Shown here: positions 2-8,494 of the stretch, one piece after another
Layout: each line of letters begins with the position of its first letter
Numbering within the stretch: position 1 is the stretch's first letter
NCBI GenBank assembly: GCA_964510585.1
Contig: CAZECW010000108.1
Location: 1-8,494, forward strand
Source of the DNA: an uncultured archaeon
Lineage (GTDB): Archaea; Asgardarchaeota; Jordiarchaeia; Jordiarchaeales; Jordiarchaeaceae
DNA: 8,494 nt
Direction of reading: 5' to 3'
Made by a program: the position numbers and the translations under genes
Notes under the pieces: model-generated
What the model was told of the DNA's origin: nothing
The model's database searches: none
Seen by the model: only the letters and a program-made list of their open reading frames with translations

Positions 2-2662
2 ACAGTCATAGAACGTTTAAAGATATTAAATGACGAAATGGTAAAACTCTTGGACTCAGATGAGTGTGAATGGTCAAAAATCCCCTCAGACACAAGATTT
101 CCCGGCTTCTTTTCAAGCATGTCCGACCACGCCCTTGCCACTTCCGCCGTAGGTGTAGCCATAGCAGTAGAACTTTATAATAAGGGAGCCGATTTGGCAG
201 GTGAATACAATGGGGAAATGGCGGAGCTTTTGAAAACTAGAAGGGGAGTAATTGAGGTTGTTAGAACACTATGTCTGCTCCACGACTCGGGGAAACCTTC
301 ACCGAAACACACTGAAAATACTAAAAAGGCTGTCGAAGAGATACTCTCAAAGATAGGCTTCGGCGAATTGGCTACTGATTTAGCAGAGTCAGCTTCAAGA
401 CATCATTATGATAAAGATTCTGAGCGTCCTCCAAGGACAAAGGTCGAGTGGGTAGTTGCCTATGCTGATAAGGTCGCTGTTCAGGATAGAACGTTTGCTG
501 GCAAAATTCTTGGTGTAGCTGTACAACCGCTTAGGTGGTTAGGTGATCATGTTGATTCTTCAAATAAGCAGAGAATATACCAGTTGGCAGACTTTATTGA
601 GCTGTTTGGTAATGACACGAAGATAGATGTTGGAAAAGTATCAGAGGAGATTAAGAAAATTCTTCCATTAGATTACAAATTTTTCAAAGAAACTCTTGAC
701 GCTGAATTATTGAATGCTAGGGAAAGGTTAGGTGAGGATATAAGGTTAGCCTTGATTCTTTTTGAGGGTGCAGGGATACAGGGATATGTTAGGAAGTCGA
801 GTTCCGCTCGCCATCTAGTTGGGCGTAGTTCTCTGGTGGAGGTGGCGACTAGATTAGCTGCAAAAAGTTTGGAGGATATGCTAGCGCCAGAGTCTATAAT
901 TTACGTCACCAGTGGAAGTGTGTTTGCCATTGTTCCTCCCTCAGAACTGCCTCAAATTGTGGATACTTTAAACAAAGAGTTTGAAGATGTTGTTAAAGGT
1001 GGAATCAGTTTAAAGTGCTGTAAAACAGCTGAGGATGTGAGCTTTAGCCTATTTGAGTTGAAAACTGGGCCAAAATTTACATGGGCTAACTGGAAAGAAG
1101 AATCGAAATTTTCAAGAATTGAAAGAAGGAATTTTGGTGAGTTTTACACAATTTTGAATAACACCATTTCTGTTCTTGACCATAAAGTTAGTGGGAGTGG
1201 TTTAACGATTCCCGCGGGGGAAATTTGTTCAATTTGTTTTGAAGAAAAAGCCCTTCCAGAGAATGATCCAGGTATTTTAGATGTAATAAAAAGTTTACCG
1301 GAGGATGAGCGGGAAGGTTATAAGGCTGGAGCCATATGTTTAAACGTTGACCAGCATAGAATGAAATTGAAAGAAACACTTGCAGGATCTTTCAAAATAG
1401 AATTCAAAGGGGAGGAAGCTTATGTTACTTTGCGTGGAGAGGTGCCTCCGGAGGATGTCAAGAATTCGCCCATTTTTATGATTACCGAGGCGATGAGCAA
1501 TATTTTGAGGGATAAGTTAAACGCTGAACATAAAGATCTCATAAGGGAATTTTCAGGAAGAACTGTTGTATTTGAAAATGCTAAATCTTGGAATTTTCTT
1601 GGTCTTGAATCGGGATACGCGCTGGAGGGGAAAGGCGTACCAGAAAAGGAGGAAATGGTGGTAGGGGTTTCGGATGTTGCCTTCATAGGTGGTGATGGGG
1701 ACAATTTTGGTTTAATTAAATCTGCAATGAACAATTTAACTTTATACCGTAAAGTCTCGAAGATATTCAAAGAGGTTATGCAGGACTCTGTAGCCAAAGC
1801 TTTAAGTGAGGTTATAATATACCAGTTAAAGCTTTACTCACAAAGCTATCGTCCCGACAAAAAATTGGAGCCCCCAGCGAAACTTTATCTACCATTTGAT
1901 ATGGTATATTTTGGTGGGGACGATTTTCTCCTGGTTTTAGATGCGGGGTTTGTGTTTATTTTCCTCAAGGCGTTCAGAGACGCAATTTTAGATAGGCTTG
2001 GTTCACGCAAGGAGAATTATCAAAAGCGGGATGGCGAGAATCTTTCCGTTTTTTCCTTAGGCGTATCTTTGGGTGTGGTTGTCGCGCCCAATAGGGCCCC
2101 CATTCATGGAACCTTGAGCGCCCTTAATACACTGGAATCCAAAGCAAAGAAGCTCAGTAAACGTAGGCAGAAGGTTGAGAATAATAAACCAGTTTTCGGT
2201 GGAGAAATATCAGTTGCACTTGAACGTTTCACCACGATTCCCACCAAAGAATTTGTGGAAGAAAATTACAAGGCTAAAGGTTTTGGGGGAACAACGAAAA
2301 TTTGTAGTACTTCATGGCCCCTTCTTGGTGCAGATATTTTCTCCGACTCGCCAGGTGATGGGCGGCCTCTTCCATTAATCACCCTTACGAAAAAGCTTCT
2401 GGAGAAACATGAAATTAGGTCTAATAATGTGGCTGAATTTGCTAGAATTGAAACTCCAAATGAGGAGGAGATAAAACTTCAAATAAGATTCAAAGCTGCG
2501 CGTTTGGACGAGAAGCGTCCTGAGAGAGAGGGCTACAGACTCTTGGCGAATAACCTTACAGTTAGGGAGGATGATTGTATAAAATTCCGTCACGGAGATG
2601 TTGCTAATGCTATGAGGATAGTTAAAGAGAGTCCCCTCTTGTTGCCCTCGGGAGGCGGATAG
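2..2662 (+). CDS. cas10: Type III CRISPR large subunit Cas10 (HD nuclease, two Palm domains, Zn-ribbon). Probably 5'-partial; first in-window ATG at 38.
   Basis: HD residues: DH (H31, nt 128), LHDSGK (nt 281-286 for HD), HH (401-406), YAD (D at 467). Palm1-like LILFEGAGIQGYV...GRSSL. CxxC at 1226-1237. Palm2 GGDGDNFG (D at 1694) and YFGGDDF (GGDD 1913-1924). C-terminal Cas11-like helix IKLQIRFKAAR. The frame has no stop from nt 2 to 37 (TVIERLKILNDE) and there is no evident RBS before ATG 38. Residue numbers count from ATG 38. Confidence 0.97.
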   Translation, partial: TVIERLKILNDEMVKLLDSDECEWSKIPSDTRFPGFFSSMSDHALATSAVGVAIAVELYNKGADLAGEYNGEMAELLKTRRGVIEVVRTLCLLHDSGKPSPKHTENTKKAVEEILSKIGFGELATDLAESASRHHYDKDSERPPRTKVEWVVAYADKVAVQDRTFAGKILGVAVQPLRWLGDHVDSSNKQRIYQLADFIELFGNDTKIDVGKVSEEIKKILPLDYKFFKETLDAELLNARERLGEDIRLALILFEGAGIQGYVRKSSSARHLVGRSSLVEVATRLAAKSLEDMLAPESIIYVTSGSVFAIVPPSELPQIVDTLNKEFEDVVKGGISLKCCKTAEDVSFSLFELKTGPKFTWANWKEESKFSRIERRNFGEFYTILNNTISVLDHKVSGSGLTIPAGEICSICFEEKALPENDPGILDVIKSLPEDEREGYKAGAICLNVDQHRMKLKETLAGSFKIEFKGEEAYVTLRGEVPPEDVKNSPIFMITEAMSNILRDKLNAEHKDLIREFSGRTVVFENAKSWNFLGLESGYALEGKGVPEKEEMVVGVSDVAFIGGDGDNFGLIKSAMNNLTLYRKVSKIFKEVMQDSVAKALSEVIIYQLKLYSQSYRPDKKLEPPAKLYLPFDMVYFGGDDFLLVLDAGFVFIFLKAFRDAILDRLGSRKENYQKRDGENLSVFSLGVSLGVVVAPNRAPIHGTLSALNTLESKAKKLSKRRQKVENNKPVFGGEISVALERFTTIPTKEFVEENYKAKGFGGTTKICSTSWPLLGADIFSDSPGDGRPLPLITLTKKLLEKHEIRSNNVAEFARIETPNEEEIKLQIRFKAARLDEKRPEREGYRLLANNLTVREDDCIKFRHGDVANAMRIVKESPLLLPSGGG

Positions 2663-2680
2663 CTGATAGGGTGTGGTTGA

Positions 2681-3313
2681 ATGGCTTGGAAGGATGATAT
2701 AAACTTCTCCCTTACTATGAGTGTAGGCTTCAGGATTGGTTCTGGGAGAGCCGGACTGGGAGTTGATCTACCAGTTGTAAAAGAGCCACTTCATAATGGC
2801 AAGTACAACTACTATACTTCCAATTTATCAAGTAGCCTTCGTGGCGTTCTCAGAAAATCAGTACATAGACTGATTCAGTCGACTGAGTTGAGCTCTCTTG
2901 CTGGCCTTGAGGAGGCCTTGTTTGGAAGTTGGGTTACTGAGGTGGGAACCAAGCAGAAGGAGGGTAAAATTAGAGTTGAAGTGATATCTCCCTCCTCGCA
3001 AAACATCAAAGGGTACACCCGGACGGGTATAAGAATAGATGAGGTGTTCGGTTCAGTAGCTCCCCAAGCACTGTTTACTTACGAAGTATTGGAGGGAGAC
3101 CGAGAAAAATTGACCTTGAGTTTTAGGCTCACTAGTACTTTTCCACTGAGTGGTGATGAGGCGGCCTTGATACTTGCTGGTCTAAACGGATTAGTATATG
3201 ATTCTATAGGAGGATTCGCATCTAGAGGATTAGGCTTAATTGAAAAGGTCGAAATTGACCAAAAATTTAAGGATTTTGCAAAACAGCATCTAGAAAAATA
3301 TCTGGGAAAGTGA
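2681..3313 (+). CDS. csm3: Cas7-group RAMP (Csm3-like), 210 aa
   Basis: FRIGSG...VDLPVVK, SSSLRGVLR, LFGS, RTGIRID...ALFTYE and the C-terminal Gly-rich loop IGGFASRGLG. Lies directly after cas10, as in III-D loci. Confidence 0.9.
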   Translation: MAWKDDINFSLTMSVGFRIGSGRAGLGVDLPVVKEPLHNGKYNYYTSNLSSSLRGVLRKSVHRLIQSTELSSLAGLEEALFGSWVTEVGTKQKEGKIRVEVISPSSQNIKGYTRTGIRIDEVFGSVAPQALFTYEVLEGDREKLTLSFRLTSTFPLSGDEAALILAGLNGLVYDSIGGFASRGLGLIEKVEIDQKFKDFAKQHLEKYLGK

Positions 3314-3314
3314 T

Positions 3315-3320
3315 GGTGAT
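3315..3320 (+). promoter_or_regulatory. Ribosome-binding site GGTGAT
   Basis: Lies between the stop at 3313 and ATG 3324; archaeal-style GGTGA core. Confidence 0.6.
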
Positions 3321-3323
3321 TAA

Positions 3324-4547
3324 ATGATAGTTGGACTAATTGAGGTTGAGGCTAAAACACCCATAGTGATTGTTTCAAAGAAGGCTAAGGGAGGATTCCT
3401 TGAAACAACAGATTATATTCCGAGCTCAACCATTCTTGGTGGGGTAGCAAGGCAAATTATTATAGATAACTATTCAAGTGGTTTTGGGAACTGTTCAAAA
3501 CTGAAGGGCCCTAATGATTCCCCCCAGTGTGAGAATTGCAGTGCTAAGGAAAAATGTGCCTACAACTATATATGGGTTGAGAAAAGGTTAAAGCTCAACT
3601 ATTGTCTCCCCTCAAGCCAAAAAAATTTCGAGGATCCTCCTCCCATACCTAGTTTGCAGTCCCTCTTTAAATCGAGAGAAGATGAACTGTTCATAGACGG
3701 ACTGTTACTCATGGCTCTCTATAGGATGTCCCTAAGAAAAGAAGCAAAAGAGGATATTCTTCTAAAGAAATTGGAAACCAAAGAGGGACCATGCAAGAAA
3801 AGTGACGCATCAGTTCGCATAGAAGAAAATGGTGCGATAGAAAGTTTGAAAATTACACTAAATGACGCACCTCACGTTGCCATAAATCCCCAACTTAAAA
3901 CCTCGGAAACGGGATATTTGTACAGTTACACTATGCTCAGTAGGGGAACAAAACTTACAGGATTAGCTATGGGCGACGAAAAAATAATCGATGAGAACCT
4001 TAATAATTCAACAATATCAGTAGGAACGGGAAAATCTCGAGGAAATGGGATTGTTAAACTAACTGTCACTAAGAAACAATCTTTAGAGGAATATATTAAG
4101 ATGAGAGGAAAGTTGATTAAAGAGGGCTTTGAGGAGATAGGAAAAAACATTAATGAATTTTTAGTGAAGCCAAAAGAAAATTTGCTTTTTGGAACCATAA
4201 CCGGATTATCTCCCCTGCCCATCAAAAGTGGAAGTCAGCCACCTGAAAATGTCGCACAAAGAATAGACATACCAAGCAACCAGATAATTCACCTGTCATA
4301 CAAGGTGGGAACTCACATCAGGTACGAGTTTAATGGTGGAGAAAATTTTGAACCAACATTCATTCTATCTCCCGTCATTAACCCAGGCTACGCGGGAGTC
4401 TTCTCCATAGAAGGAGATTTGGAAAAAGTTTCACTTAATCTGGCTAAACGCGAAGTCGATTTGACAAATTATCAACCATGGTTTGGTTGGATTACCATAA
4501 ACCATCCAATCCACTATTTGAATGTTAGAAATCAAATCAAAGGGTGA
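3324..4547 (+). CDS. csx10: Cas5-group RAMP, Csx10-like (III-D), 407 aa
   Basis: N-terminal TPIVI...LETTDYIPSSTILGGVA, HVAINP..KTSETGYLYSY, internal Gly-rich loop VGTGKSRGNG followed by a second, degenerate RAMP-like half. Size and position match Csx10. Confidence 0.82.
   Translation: MIVGLIEVEAKTPIVIVSKKAKGGFLETTDYIPSSTILGGVARQIIIDNYSSGFGNCSKLKGPNDSPQCENCSAKEKCAYNYIWVEKRLKLNYCLPSSQKNFEDPPPIPSLQSLFKSREDELFIDGLLLMALYRMSLRKEAKEDILLKKLETKEGPCKKSDASVRIEENGAIESLKITLNDAPHVAINPQLKTSETGYLYSYTMLSRGTKLTGLAMGDEKIIDENLNNSTISVGTGKSRGNGIVKLTVTKKQSLEEYIKMRGKLIKEGFEEIGKNINEFLVKPKENLLFGTITGLSPLPIKSGSQPPENVAQRIDIPSNQIIHLSYKVGTHIRYEFNGGENFEPTFILSPVINPGYAGVFSIEGDLEKVSLNLAKREVDLTNYQPWFGWITINHPIHYLNVRNQIKG
4543..4547 (+). 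promoter_or_regulatory. Ribosome-binding site GGTGA overlapping the csx10 stop codon
   Basis: 7 nt before ATG 4555; its TGA is the stop codon of the upstream gene. Confidence 0.6.
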
Positions 4548-4554
4548 ATAAAAT

Positions 4555-4908
4555 ATGAAAGAGAAAGATACAACCGAATATGTGAAGGCCGCTGAGAATA
4601 TTCTAAAAAACATCGAGGACCACATAATAGAAACTGAAGGGAGTAAGGAAGGAAAAGGAAACGTTACAATGGGCACTGTAAGGAAAGCGTTAGAGCTGGC
4701 TAAAACCACCAAAAGCTATCTAGAGTTTAAACTAAGGCTCGGCTACATGGTCGCAAGAAACATACCGTCAAAGGGAAGAAATACACCTCTTGAAAAATTT
4801 TATGAAAATCTCAAGAGAGAGTCCAAAGGAGACCTTGAGTATCTTAAGAATCTTATGGAGTATGTAGTTATGAGATTCACAGTTCTAGCTAAACTTGGAA
4901 GGGAGTAG
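4555..4908 (+). CDS. cas11: Small subunit Cas11 (Csm2-like), 117 aa
   Basis: Helical and basic. VTMGTVRK...FKLRLGYMVAR resembles the Csm2/Cas11 T-x-x-Q-x-R...Y-x-x-x-R pattern. Located between cas5 and cas7. Confidence 0.85.
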   Translation: MKEKDTTEYVKAAENILKNIEDHIIETEGSKEGKGNVTMGTVRKALELAKTTKSYLEFKLRLGYMVARNIPSKGRNTPLEKFYENLKRESKGDLEYLKNLMEYVVMRFTVLAKLGRE

Positions 4909-4909
4909 T

Positions 4910-4917
4910 GGAGGTGA
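4910..4917 (+). promoter_or_regulatory. Ribosome-binding site GGAGGTGA
   Basis: Complementary to the 16S 3' end, 9 nt before TTG 4927. Confidence 0.8.
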
Positions 4918-4926
4918 AATTTAGAG

Positions 4927-5721
4927 TTGAGCAGTGGCGAAATGAGTCTCCATAGTAGGCTTAAGAGAAGGATAGTCATCGACTGTATGATTGAAACTAT
5001 GGAGCCTCTCCATGTAGGAAAAGGAAAAGAGACCCCGACTGTTTCAGAGGTCGACCTGCCGGTAATAGTTGACAGTAACAAAAATCCTATTATTCCGGGA
5101 TCAAGTATAAGGGGAGTCCTAAGGGCTCATGTGACACGCCTATTGTCCTCCTTAGACGAAACAATCCTCCAACAAGAATTCAACGTTGTAAAAGTTAAAG
5201 CAACAGAAAAGGAAATAGACGAATTCCAAGCAGCGAGGTCTCAAGAAGAAAAAATGAAGCTATTCAGTGAAAAATTAGGCGTCATTGACAAATTGTTTGG
5301 GGCGTCTGGCTATGCTTCACCACTAAGAATGACTGATGCGAAGCCAACAAAAGGAATTGAACTAATCGAGCGAACCCACGTAAGAATTGATAACGATTTA
5401 GATAGAGCAGTAGAAGGTGGACTATTTGATGTTCAGTCTGTTCCCGAGGAGCAACAGTTTGAATTCAAAATTGTTTTCGACGAGTTGAATGACCATGTTA
5501 CACTTGATGTAAGCAAAGTCTTCTACAAACTATTCCTGAATCAATTGGTGGATGGGCTTGAAATGTTTTTAGGCGGAATGAAGTCAAGAGGATACGGATT
5601 AAGCAAAATTAAAGCCAAACAGGTTTTGCTATATACCCCAAAACAATTAGCGTTGGGCGAAAAACCCCAACCCATTACCGACATAAGCGGATTTGTAAAT
5701 GAAGCCCTAAAAGAGATGTAA
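4927..5721 (+). CDS. csm3: Cas7 backbone subunit Csm3, 264 aa (TTG start; alternative ATG at 4942)
   Basis: EPLHVG...DLPV...PIIPGSSIRGVLR, LFGA, RTHVRID...GGLFD, LGGMKSRGYG. RBS GGAGGTGA at 4910-4917. Confidence 0.95.
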   Translation: MSSGEMSLHSRLKRRIVIDCMIETMEPLHVGKGKETPTVSEVDLPVIVDSNKNPIIPGSSIRGVLRAHVTRLLSSLDETILQQEFNVVKVKATEKEIDEFQAARSQEEKMKLFSEKLGVIDKLFGASGYASPLRMTDAKPTKGIELIERTHVRIDNDLDRAVEGGLFDVQSVPEEQQFEFKIVFDELNDHVTLDVSKVFYKLFLNQLVDGLEMFLGGMKSRGYGLSKIKAKQVLLYTPKQLALGEKPQPITDISGFVNEALKEM

Positions 5722-5752
5722 TAAACAAAGGATGGAGAGTGGCGGGATATAA

Positions 5753-6604
5753 ATGAGCGAACCTAAATATTTTGGAAAATATGTACTCCTCAGTCAAATA
5801 GATGCTAAAATAATTGCAAAAACACCATTAAGAGTTGGAAAAGGTAAAGAAATGGCAGTTGTAGAGTCAGACCTACCAATAATAAAAAATTCTGACGAAG
5901 TGCCTATTATACCGGGTTCTTCTCTTAAAGGATTCTTTAGAGCAAACTCAGAAAGAATAATAGCCAACATCAAACCGATTACGGAGGCTGAACAATTAAC
6001 TAAAAAGATATTTGGTTCCTCAGATAAGAAGGAGGAACCCGGCTCAGCGATATTCTTTTACGACCTCAAAGCCACCAACTATAAGCTCGAAAATAGAAAA
6101 CACATCAAAATCAATCCACAGACTGGTGGTGTGGATAACCTATTTGAAGCTGAGTGCGTAATGGACGGCGCATCTTTTGAGGGACGTCTTGCAACAACGA
6201 GGAATCTTTCACCAGTATTTATTGGAATTTTGCAACCAGTAATTGAATTAGCTTCACTGGGCATCTGCCGCCTAGGAGGCTTCAAGAGCAGAGGCTATGG
6301 TTCAGTGGATATTAACATAAATAAGCTGACTCTGATTATACCTGGAAAATCCAAAGAAAAGCTAAAAGAGGGAGTGGAAATCCAACCAACAATAGGAACA
6401 GACAAACCCACACACATCAAAACAAAAAATGGTAACGAGGTAACACTCAAGGAAATAGATGAGGTGAGCTTTAAAGCAAAAATAGAGGAGGAAGCAGGCT
6501 ATCTCGGGGCAAAGATAACAGTGGAAGATACCAAAGAGACTAGCAAACTATTCTCATCGCTGGCTAATCAGTTTCAGAAATACCTCATGGGAGAAAGCAA
6601 GTAG
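5753..6604 (+). CDS. csm3: Cas7 backbone subunit Csm3 with C-terminal extension, 283 aa
   Basis: TPLRVG...SDLPI...PIIPGSSLKGFFR, IFGS, RKHIKINP.TG, LGGFKSRGYG. Confidence 0.95.
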   Translation: MSEPKYFGKYVLLSQIDAKIIAKTPLRVGKGKEMAVVESDLPIIKNSDEVPIIPGSSLKGFFRANSERIIANIKPITEAEQLTKKIFGSSDKKEEPGSAIFFYDLKATNYKLENRKHIKINPQTGGVDNLFEAECVMDGASFEGRLATTRNLSPVFIGILQPVIELASLGICRLGGFKSRGYGSVDININKLTLIIPGKSKEKLKEGVEIQPTIGTDKPTHIKTKNGNEVTLKEIDEVSFKAKIEEEAGYLGAKITVEDTKETSKLFSSLANQFQKYLMGESK

Positions 6605-6622
6605 GAATGGGGGAAGATTGGT

Positions 6623-7510
6623 TTGAGCAGGCAAACACGTGGTTCAGGAGGCGCAGTCTCCTCTTACTATGACTTCATTAAGGTTGATTCAACTAGGAGA
6701 GATAAAATACCAGAACGATTGTTCACAGATAGGAGAAAACTTGGAAACATTTACCTATTGGAACTTCAATTCACTACCATTCGACCCATACATGTTAGTA
6801 CGGGAATGAAGGAGCTCAAAGAAAATGGCGTACCTGAAATAATCATGGTACAATATCTAAATAATAAGGATGGTAAACCAACAATTCCCGGCTCCACGTT
6901 TAAAGGCTTGACATCAACAAACTATCTTGCCCTCACTGGCTCCATCGAACTTACATGCGAACTATTTGGTTCAGACAGGCATCCGGCAATCTCGAAGGTA
7001 TTCTTTGAAGATGTTGTACCGCTTGAGAATGTAGAAACAAAATTGGTGAAGGTTAAAAGAGCATGGATGCCAAAAATAAGTGTTCAAAGAAGTGTTAAGG
7101 TATACACATCTAGGGCTCCTCCAACCGCAGACTATGGGCTAATGCAGTGCATCCCGGAGGGAACAGTGCTCTCGACAACAATACGTGGCGTTGCACTAAG
7201 AGATTTTGAATTGGGAGGATTACTGATGTCTCTAGGACTAAATATCAAAAATGATGAGGTTACCACAGGAGTAATTAAATTAGGCTACGGTAAACCCCAA
7301 GGATTCGGTCAGATTAAACTTAGCCCGGAAAAATCAAAACTTCTATTGGTGGAGTTAAAAGGACTCACAGGAGCCCCAAAGTTACAAGGAAGTCTAGAAA
7401 AAGCAGAAACTGTGGCCAATTATATTAAAAAATTCTTGGAAGAGATAAAAAAGAGGGAGCCTCAAAGGAATGCAGACCAAATATACCAAAAAATCTTCAA
7501 GGGGATCTAG
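6623..7510 (+). CDS. csm5: Cas7-group RAMP, Csm5-like / III-D terminal Cas7, 295 aa (TTG start)
   Basis: YYDFIKV near the N-terminus (cf. the PYNF motif), RPIHVSTG, PTIPGSTFKG, LFG...SKVFFED, ELGGLL, and KLGYGKPQGFG, which resembles the terminal Cas7 of III-D loci. GGGGGA at 6609-6614 lies upstream of the TTG. Confidence 0.82.
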   Translation: MSRQTRGSGGAVSSYYDFIKVDSTRRDKIPERLFTDRRKLGNIYLLELQFTTIRPIHVSTGMKELKENGVPEIIMVQYLNNKDGKPTIPGSTFKGLTSTNYLALTGSIELTCELFGSDRHPAISKVFFEDVVPLENVETKLVKVKRAWMPKISVQRSVKVYTSRAPPTADYGLMQCIPEGTVLSTTIRGVALRDFELGGLLMSLGLNIKNDEVTTGVIKLGYGKPQGFGQIKLSPEKSKLLLVELKGLTGAPKLQGSLEKAETVANYIKKFLEEIKKREPQRNADQIYQKIFKGI

Positions 7511-7513
7511 AAA

Positions 7514-7936
7514 ATGAAGGGAGAAGAGTTAAACGCCAAAAACGTAGATGAGACAATTAATAAGGCAAAAACTTTCCTAAATAAAGTCCCCAAATACTCA
7601 TCCAACCCCGAAATACAAAAAAGAATAGTTCCCGTCACAGCAAACATGGCAAGAACCATCTGCTATAAAATTGCACACGACCAAGCATTTAGGAATCTGA
7701 AGAATTCTCCGATTAAACAGGAAATGAAAAAGCAAATAATCTCAGAGATGATAAATCAAAGAGTCTTCGAAAGGGTTAGGGATAAGAAGGAGCCTTTAAA
7801 AGTTGTGGAAAACCTATTACAGGGATTAATAAGTGAGCTCGACTCTCTAAATTGGTCCACTGAAAAATCCAAACTGTTTATAGAAGCACTGTGTATGATC
7901 TACGAAACTGAAGACAAAGGGATCAAGGTATTTTGA
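7514..7936 (+). CDS. Small helical protein, putative second Cas11/Csm2-like subunit, 140 aa
   Basis: In operon, 3 nt after the previous stop, and appears all-helical. VTANMAR and the C-terminal KLFIEALCMIYE resemble Csm2 motifs (TxxQxR; FxxFFEAxVAY). The resemblance is judged by eye only. Confidence 0.55.
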   Translation: MKGEELNAKNVDETINKAKTFLNKVPKYSSNPEIQKRIVPVTANMARTICYKIAHDQAFRNLKNSPIKQEMKKQIISEMINQRVFERVRDKKEPLKVVENLLQGLISELDSLNWSTEKSKLFIEALCMIYETEDKGIKVF

Positions 7937-8494
7937 AGATAGTAAGCATTATAACAGTTGCCCAACAGTATACTTCCGATAAACTTAAGCAAGTTATGTC
8001 CCAAATTTTAGGGGGGTCCTCACAGAATTTTTCGTACTTGTTTCAATTAATCTCTGGAAAATTCATTAATCTAATGTCTAATCAGGATGCGTCTTCTATA
8101 ACCTTCGATGAAGTTGTCAGATTAGTTAGTAAACTTGGAGCTGTTGAACTATTTATTTTAACCGATGAAGATGGATTATGGGCTAAAATTCCTAAAGAAT
8201 CAAAAGGCGAAAGAAGAGAGGAATCAGATAAAAGTGTAGAGTTCTTAACCTTAGCTATTACAGAGATAAAACCTGAGAATCTTGTAATTATGGATACCAA
8301 AAAGATTATCCTTAGATGTAAATTGGATAATAAAGAAATGTTAGATTATTACACTCATATTGTTAAGGAGTTGAAAGAGGCAAACATTCATTATTACTGT
8401 AATAAATGGTGTAATTATCTAGAATATAAAAACAAGGTAAGTGGAATTAATAAAGAAATCAAAATTGAAGCGCCGACCTTAAAGAAGTTAGTTC
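7933..8494 (+). CDS. Unknown protein, 3'-partial (at least 187 aa), not in the supplied ORF track
   Basis: TTG at 7933 overlaps the upstream TGA (TTGA). Manual translation has no stop to the window end: MKIVSIITVAQQYTSDKLKQVMSQILGG...VELFILTDEDG...LAITEIKPENLVIMDT...YYCNKWCNY...APTLKKLV. Alternative ATG at 7996. Confidence 0.8.
   Translation, partial: MKIVSIITVAQQYTSDKLKQVMSQILGGSSQNFSYLFQLISGKFINLMSNQDASSITFDEVVRLVSKLGAVELFILTDEDGLWAKIPKESKGERREESDKSVEFLTLAITEIKPENLVIMDTKKIILRCKLDNKEMLDYYTHIVKELKEANIHYYCNKWCNYLEYKNKVSGINKEIKIEAPTLKKLV

Follow-up and report, generated by a model that had tools for sequence, protein, structure and literature searches.

Subtype III-D, from which the single-protein effectors III-E and III-I derive, is the least understood multi-subunit branch of the type III CRISPR systems. 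The 8,494-nucleotide (nt) contig analysed here from end to end (contig C108, CAZECW010000108.1; hereafter the window), from a hot-spring Asgard archaeon (Jordarchaeia/Freyarchaeia), raises the question of what kind of type III effector its cas10-led operon encodes, and what the small helical gene that closes the operon contributes to it. Our answer starts from gene content, conserved motifs, synteny and neighbouring signalling genes, which were observed directly. We consider it probable that the window contains a complete effector module, belonging to an archaeal variant of III-D that is III-D1-like and unfused and would act by the mechanism described below. What is new about this archaeal III-D variant is chiefly an unrecognised family of helical proteins; the parts are otherwise known and the predicted mechanism is ordinary.

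The window carries nine co-directional open reading frames (ORFs) on the + strand. The eight genes of the operon lie in the order and at the positions given by an earlier sequence-only reading of this DNA. The ninth ORF, which runs off the contig, was added to that gene list. In window coordinates, with the basis of each assignment in brackets, they are:

2/38 to 2662, + strand: cas10, the large subunit, with HD domain, two Palm domains and GGDD motif (Pfam, PADLOC, motifs).
2681 to 3313, + strand: cas7 no. 1, 210 residues, by gene order the Cas7 adjoining Cas5 (Pfam, PADLOC).
3324 to 4547, + strand: csx10, by its best profile matches the Cas5 of subtype III-D, 407 residues (seven PADLOC Cas5_IIId profiles).
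4555 to 4908, + strand: cas11, a csm2-type small subunit, 117 residues (PADLOC Csm2 and fold search).
4927 to 5721, + strand: cas7 no. 2, Csx7 type, 264 residues, with a TTG start behind a GGAGGTGA site (TIGR02581).
5753 to 6604, + strand: cas7 no. 3, 283 residues (Csx7 and PADLOC Csm3).
6623 to 7510, + strand: terminal cas7, 295 residues, without large insertion and without catalytic-loop Asp (TIGR03986 flanks).
7514 to 7936, + strand: an all-helical protein of 140 residues, of no known family (ORF and conserved position).
7933 to 8493, + strand: ORF9, the 5' part (187 codons) of an accessory gene of ~540 residues, overlapping the previous stop by 4 nt (homologue in locus L001).

Successive operon genes are separated by 18, 10, 7, 18, 31, 18 and 3 nt, within the 31-nt maximum noted earlier, so there is no room for another gene between the eight. 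Family matches were obtained for seven of the eight. The gene order of bacterial III-D1, cas10-cas7-cas5-cas11-cas7-cas7-(csx19)-cas7, is identical here save for csx19, and the placement in III-D is supported by this order together with the Cas5 and Cas7 profile matches. The best PADLOC matches of the 407-residue Csx10 were all Cas5_IIId (seven profiles, 4.4e-10 to 2e-3); it also matched Cmr3 at 5.5e-6. Several distinct cas7 genes, including one of Csx7 type, are a mark of III-D, and the operon has four different RAMP genes. Cas7 no. 1 matched Pfam RAMPs (2e-9) and, in PADLOC, Cas7_IIId (6.5e-12) and Csm3 (8.6e-12); no. 2 matched TIGR02581 (Csx7) with 114.3 bits, over the curated cut-off of 108.05; and no. 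3 matched Csx7 (2.2e-24) and PADLOC Csm3 (1e-31). The Asp of a 'DLP' (D-L/x-P) loop was conserved in 7/7 relatives of no. 1, 7/7 of no. 2 and 6/7 of no. 3. We take this residue to correspond to the catalytic Asp of Csm3, and with the loop Asp kept in three Cas7 proteins one would expect RNA cleavage by the complex at three sites. The 117-residue Cas11 matched PADLOC Csm2 at 5.7e-6, as did seven of eight members of its family (best 1.2e-11). The top fold matches of its AlphaFold2 (AF2) model (mean predicted local distance difference test score, pLDDT, 88.5) were all Cas11: 8bmw_A (Z 9.6), 6ifk_D (Z 8.1) and Cmr5 (Z 7.4-7.8).

The large subunit identifies the system as type III by its Palm/cyclase domains. 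Pfam Cas10-Cmr2_palm2 matched at 6.5e-11 (PF22335, 42.9 bits against a cut-off of 27), the PADLOC Cas10 profile at 1.1e-20, and the palm-1 GDGD (564-567) and GGDD (638-641) motifs were invariant across 17 Cas10 homologues. The presence of HD residues, reported in the sequence-only reading, was borne out by a Pfam HD match at 3.8e-7 and by D42, H94-D95 and H134, which, like the zinc-finger cysteines, were invariant in the same 17 sequences. The gene at 2-2662 is indeed cas10, as had been proposed, but it is not complete: the homologues are 915-959 residues long, so the cas10 in the window lacks its start and is cut at the 5' side by the contig end. The missing ~46 codons are supplied by contig C210 of the same genome, where the true start, a GTG at C210:6572, yields a protein of ~932 residues.

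Several results weigh against assignment to III-D. On the curated Csx10 model, TIGR02674, the 407-residue protein scored weakly (2.7e-6, 26.8 bits against a cut-off of 177.3), and the terminal Cas7 fell far under the cut-off of TIGR03986 (4.9e-18, 65.9 bits against 161.35). When the Cas10 family profile was compared with sequences in the PDB, the best solved relative was the III-A protein Csm1 (1.1e-7), followed by Cmr2 (~5e-3); the III-D Cas10 proteins of 8BMW and 8S9T were not reached, with no match to 8BMW at E <= 1. The single Cas10 sequence gave no match in the PDB.

Is the arrangement peculiar to this contig? The order cas10-cas7-csx10-cas11-cas7-cas7-cas7-helical gene was kept in at least ten independent loci, with Cas10 identity down to 32%. 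The synteny comparison proposed in the sequence-only reading thus returned the eight-gene order in every related locus that covers enough sequence for it to be seen. The full order was found at 94% Cas10 identity (L001), 69% (L004-L006, Jordarchaeia), 65% (L002/L003), 36% (L009 and L032, Archaeoglobi) and 32% (L010, an archaeon), and at 41% in metagenomic loci (L013/L014) with Csx14-like, Csm6-like and Cas6 genes around the operon. In shorter locus fragments, the helical gene always lies right behind a Cas7 of ~293 residues. The genes that follow the helical gene vary, being a HEPN-motif gene, a CRISPR array, a transposase or Csm6. Metagenome-assembled genomes of Jordarchaeia/Freyarchaeota supplied the Cas10 relatives at 59-94% identity, and Njordarchaeota one at 53%. 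Together with the Archaeoglobi loci, these relatives uphold the earlier view of a distinct, likely archaeal variant. A profile of the helical protein found it in 3-4 of 400 Asgard genomes, in 2/6 genomes of the genus and in 9/96 Archaeoglobi (the class of L009). A rare, patchy occurrence common to unrelated thermophilic archaea is as expected of a mobile defence island. The pattern fits gene exchange between the Asgard and Archaeoglobi lineages of thermophiles, and we regard the module as conserved and spread horizontally.

The terminal Cas7 had been called a short csm5-like protein. Its shortness (295 residues) was confirmed; its likeness to Csm5 was not, as it lies nearer to TIGR03986 and to Cas7.4 of Cas7-11. 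Its family profile matched 9wxh_D, a TIGR03986-family chain, at 4.4e-10, Cas7.4 of gRAMP/Cas7-11 at ~1e-8 to 3e-9, and the Cas7 paralogues of SsoCsm, the III-D complex of Saccharolobus solfataricus (PDB 8BMW), at 1.4e-6, with Csm5 more distant than any of these. By its profile matches, the terminal Cas7 is a member of the III-D/III-E terminal-Cas7 lineage. The TIGR03986 match covered the flanks only (profile positions 453-555 and an N-terminal stretch), and the two RAMP halves are ~70 residues apart here compared to ~416 in 8s9t_E, the Cas7-insertion chain of Synechocystis, which indicates that the large insertion is absent. The catalytic-loop Asp is also absent, the loop reading 'GVPEII'. Loss of the insertion is a matter of degree: in the bacterial III-D1 locus of Allocoleopsis the terminal Cas7 has only 368 residues, and the earlier premise that canonical III-D has a terminal Cas7 with a large insertion was overstated.

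The absence of a recognisable csx19 was likewise upheld. Where it would lie, after the third cas7 and before the terminal one, there is no ORF and a gap of 18 nt. The Csx19 model TIGR03984 matched nothing in this genome and three relatives; since it also misses the csx19-position genes of two canonical loci and is thus a poor detector, the gene map, not the lack of a model match, carries this argument. Neither the longer relatives (L002, L004, L013, L032) nor the adjoining contigs (C210, C115) contain a csx19 outside the stretch corresponding to the window. The statement that canonical III-D has csx19 had gone too far, as the gene is described as 'often' present and is not obligatory (PMC11026444).

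What, then, is the 140-residue protein encoded behind the terminal cas7? Neither it nor 23 relatives matched a family in Pfam (2025), NCBIfam (June 2026) or PADLOC (2023). When 1.84 billion representatives were searched exhaustively with a profile of the protein, 16 clusters were returned, one of which, a repetitive protein of 3,836 residues, is probably spurious. One homologue of 135 residues (P0025) bears the Joint Genome Institute (JGI) name 'predicted secreted Zn-dependent protease', for which our searches gave no support and which looks like a mis-annotation. The gene always lies directly behind the terminal cas7, here 3 nt downstream, with an AGGGG site within the end of cas7. The best AF2 model (pLDDT 90.1) is all-alpha with six helices. 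We submitted this model to an exhaustive VIA-align fold search of 48,161 chains and considered the top 50 rows; 12 of these were type III entries aligned to Cas11 proteins or Cas11-like domains. The best CRISPR-related match was the Cas11 of SsoCsm (8bmw_A; Z 7.6, root-mean-square deviation 3.8, 99 residues aligned). Further rows of Cas11 type (Z 5.3-7.0) were Cmr5 (2oeb, 4gkf, 6s6b), the C-terminal domain of Cas10/Cmr2/Csm1, and residues ~260-400 of Cas7-11. In a control search with the genuine Cas11 of the operon, 24 of the 50 rows were common to the list of the 140-residue protein, including the unrelated ATP-synthase delta/OSCP bundles. Fold search and control together lend weak support to a Cas11-like fold in the predicted model. 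Residues R37, R47 and R83 are nearly invariant across the family, which would suit an RNA-facing small subunit.

A number of results speak against a Cas11-like identity. Of the five AF2 models a single one was confident, and the other four were poor. The Z of 7.6 lies within the range that helical bundles reach by chance, and ATP-synthase delta/OSCP domains scored the same as Cas11. Foldseek against the PDB gave nothing usable (best E 0.29, Mcl-1-like bundles), and the ESM Atlas searched by shape gave template modelling (TM) scores below 0.5. Comparison by hhalign with the family of the operon's own Cas11 detected no similarity (hhalign probability 2.7%), and Cas11, Csm2 and Cmr5 profiles matched none of the 24 members of the 140-residue family. 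Some other searches were empty as well: the ESM Atlas searched by features yielded no usable match for the 140-residue protein or ORF9, and the 140-residue profile found nothing among PDB sequences. A complex prediction with terminal Cas7, Cas11 and the 140-residue protein was uninformative either way, as a control with Cas7 replaced scored equally high. Weighing these results, we regard the 140-residue protein as probably a second, very divergent Cas11-like small subunit. The second small subunit of the sequence-only reading stands as an extra conserved helical gene, and its Cas11-like role is suggested by a weak resemblance in predicted fold.

A more far-reaching possibility, which we put forward tentatively and would not yet bet on, is that the 140-residue protein founds a new Cas family as a second, non-interchangeable small subunit. 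The minor filament would then be heteromeric and of fixed length, composed of the Cas10 C-terminal domain, Cas11 and the new subunit, and such an operon would stand near the root of the III-D to III-E lineage, in a state that is unfused and has neither the insertion nor Csx19.

One alternative places the operon, as an ordinary member, in a III-D clade that has already been catalogued, with its trailing gene an unannotated second cas11 covered by unpublished or newer Cas profiles. Genomes of Odinarchaeum and Freyarchaeia have indeed received automatic 'III-D' labels; the gene set was not described there (PMC9246712, PMC11529989), and these labels in Asgard genomes were all that we found in the literature on this gene set. 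The 2025 classification, for which new profile sets were built, mentions III-D1 and III-D2 variants and does not mention Asgard archaea (PMC12669027). Against this explanation stand the three model collections searched above, in which no model recognises the 140-residue protein, and the papers searched, in which we found no description of two different small helical subunits in one type III operon. We consider this alternative unlikely, if a serious contender.

It is also conceivable that the 140-residue protein belongs to the complex as something other than Cas11, namely an assembly or capping factor that replaces Csx19 or the Cas7 insertion, for example by holding the 3' end of the CRISPR RNA (crRNA). 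This would agree with the coupling of its gene to the terminal cas7 (3-nt gap) and not to cas11, with its lack of sequence similarity to Cas11, and with the absence of both Csx19 and the insertion from this variant, given that Csx19 is required for assembly of the III-Dv complex (PMC11026444). Csx19, however, is rich in beta structure and has a basal place between Cas5 and Cas10 (PMC11026444), whereas the model of the 140-residue protein is all-alpha, and the fold search matched the Cas11 domain of Cas7-11 and neither its insertion domain nor 8s9t_E. For these reasons we rejected a displaced Csx19 and dropped derivation from the Cas7 insertion domain, which the fold search did not support. Alignment by hhalign with the csx19-position protein of Bacillus cereus detected no similarity either. 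An assembly or capping role in general appears quite improbable to us. Least of all do we favour a co-transcribed accessory or regulator that is not a stable subunit, such as a Cas10 modulator or an adaptor for the HEPN protein: the 140-residue protein has no family and sits at the operon edge before variable genes, but its gene is in every full-length locus whatever accessory gene follows, Archaeoglobi included, and type III accessory genes are usually shuffled and not fixed in position, which makes this explanation very unlikely.

A second Cas11-like subunit thus remains our preferred explanation, and we turn to the surroundings of the operon. The source draft genome comprises 3.78 Mb in 217 contigs (41.7% GC, 96% complete by marker genes) and has a single Cas10 copy. 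An array scan of the whole window detected no CRISPR array, and no Rfam family was found in it. The first 141 nt of the window are identical to C210 (locus L020) 6709-6849 at 141/141 positions; as this overlap has the length of an assembler k-mer, C210 and the window contig are adjacent. C210 encodes Csx14, a TM1812/DxTHG CARF protein, a TIGR02710 CARF-6H-HEPN (Csm6-like) protein (8e-52) and a 228-residue protein of no family, and it has CRISPR repeats at its far end. The cas6 gene is encoded away from the operon, on contig C79. CRISPR repeats of 37 nt ending in ATTGAAAG occur at the ends of contigs C130 (8800-8912), C136 (32-219) and C210 (2-113), and internally in C167 (12944-13055); the arrays at contig ends have two or three repeats each and are broken by the contig boundary. 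This repeat is ~86% identical to that of the arrays that directly flank the related operon in L002. One of these L002 arrays starts 90 nt past the helical gene, which indicates that the operon ends with that gene.

On the downstream side, no contig of the genome continues past the window end. At the start of contig C115 (L021) is another Csx14-like gene, which shares 92% identity with the gene after ORF9 in L001, and C115 therefore probably lies downstream of the window across a gap of ~1 kb. Genes for an N6/N4 DNA methylase and an HNH endonuclease adjoin this second Csx14-like gene (C115 3997-5480), suggesting that the CRISPR locus is part of a wider defence island.

The part of ORF9 within the window is 88% identical to the first 186 residues of L001:7923-9548, which has a full length of ~540 residues. 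A search of 5.8 billion clusters returned four homologues only, all from Jordarchaeia/Freyarchaeia and adjoining the helical gene where this is visible. A HEPN Rx6H motif, RNKSxYSHG (RNKSVYSHG), lies in the C-terminal part of the homologues, outside the window; it is conserved in 5/5 homologues, and in alignments it coincides with the HEPN motif of the Csm6-like proteins encoded nearby in L004 and L002. There was a weak match to PF09670 (0.038), and the N-terminal ~190 residues, the part in the window, matched no family. ORF9 is probably a lineage-specific HEPN effector with a sensor domain of no known family, and its family may represent a novel accessory effector of type III systems. A Csx14/Cas_NE0113 (Crn1-like CARF) gene lies directly upstream of cas10 in L004 (6072-6854), L013 (9230-9997), L032 (16888-17643) and L020 (5766-6566), the last being the C210 copy (114.8 bits, over cut-off). 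With Asgard, metagenomic and Archaeoglobi copies, Csx14 looks like a ninth gene conserved in the module, and it is presumably a ring nuclease.

We infer the activities, the stoichiometry and the membership of the 140-residue protein in the complex as follows. Cas6 would cut array transcripts at the 37-nt repeat; the 5' tag of 8 nt that remains would be bound by Csx10 and the first Cas7, and three further, non-identical Cas7 proteins would line the guide. The three of the four Cas7 proteins with the loop Asp are predicted to cut bound target RNA at 6-nt steps, and the terminal Cas7, without it, would cap the filament. Target binding would activate Cas10, its HD domain cutting single-stranded DNA and its GGDD Palm pair making cyclic oligoadenylate. 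The signal would be read by the TIGR02710 CARF-HEPN and TM1812/DxTHG proteins of C210, and would probably be damped by the CARF-carrying, ring-nuclease-like Csx14. The minor filament would consist of the 117-residue Cas11 and the 140-residue protein, the latter near the top beside the terminal Cas7. Such a two-protein minor filament agrees with the tendency of III-D to devote a separate gene to each position.

The variant is conserved, keeps its HD and cyclase motifs, devotes one gene to each backbone position and offers an extra helical subunit candidate. If the proposal is right, it represents another way of building a small-subunit filament and supplies annotation pipelines with a new Cas family. 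The locus further contributes to the inventory of defence systems in Asgard archaea.

How does the module compare with known systems? With the bacterial III-D1 loci of Allocoleopsis franciscana (pMIC7113.03) and Bacillus cereus (pMRY14-0060_2) and with Synechocystis III-Dv it has in common the gene order, the terminal cas7 of TIGR03986 type, several distinct Cas7 genes, and Csm6/CARF genes and Cas6 nearby. In III-Dv (PDB 8S9T), cas7-cas5-cas11 and cas7-cas7 are fused in an order collinear with III-D1 (PMC11026444). Unlike these systems, the module described here has no gene at the csx19 position, an extra all-helical gene behind the terminal cas7, a terminal Cas7 of 295 residues compared to 368-795, a Cas10 that keeps its HD domain, and archaeal hosts. 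The Allocoleopsis locus (L034) contains three hypothetical genes for proteins of 206 residues (6712-7332, 7360-7980 and 10504-11124), which have no NCBIfam family where tested; one trails the terminal cas7, and hhalign detected no similarity between its product and the 140-residue protein. The 140-residue protein resembles Cas11 proteins (Csm2, Cmr5 and Cas11-like domains) in size, in its all-alpha model, conserved arginines and location in an effector operon, and in common fold-search neighbours. It differs from them in having no detectable sequence or profile similarity and in being present besides a regular Cas11. SsoCsm, with one cas11, five cas7 and a record eight subunit types, is likewise archaeal, has an HD-bearing Cas10 and several Cas7 paralogues, lacks Csx19 and is built from eight different subunit genes (PMC9945777). 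Its gene order is cas11-cas7x3-cas10-cas7-cas5-cas7, whereas the operon in the window has four cas7 genes and two small helical genes in another order.

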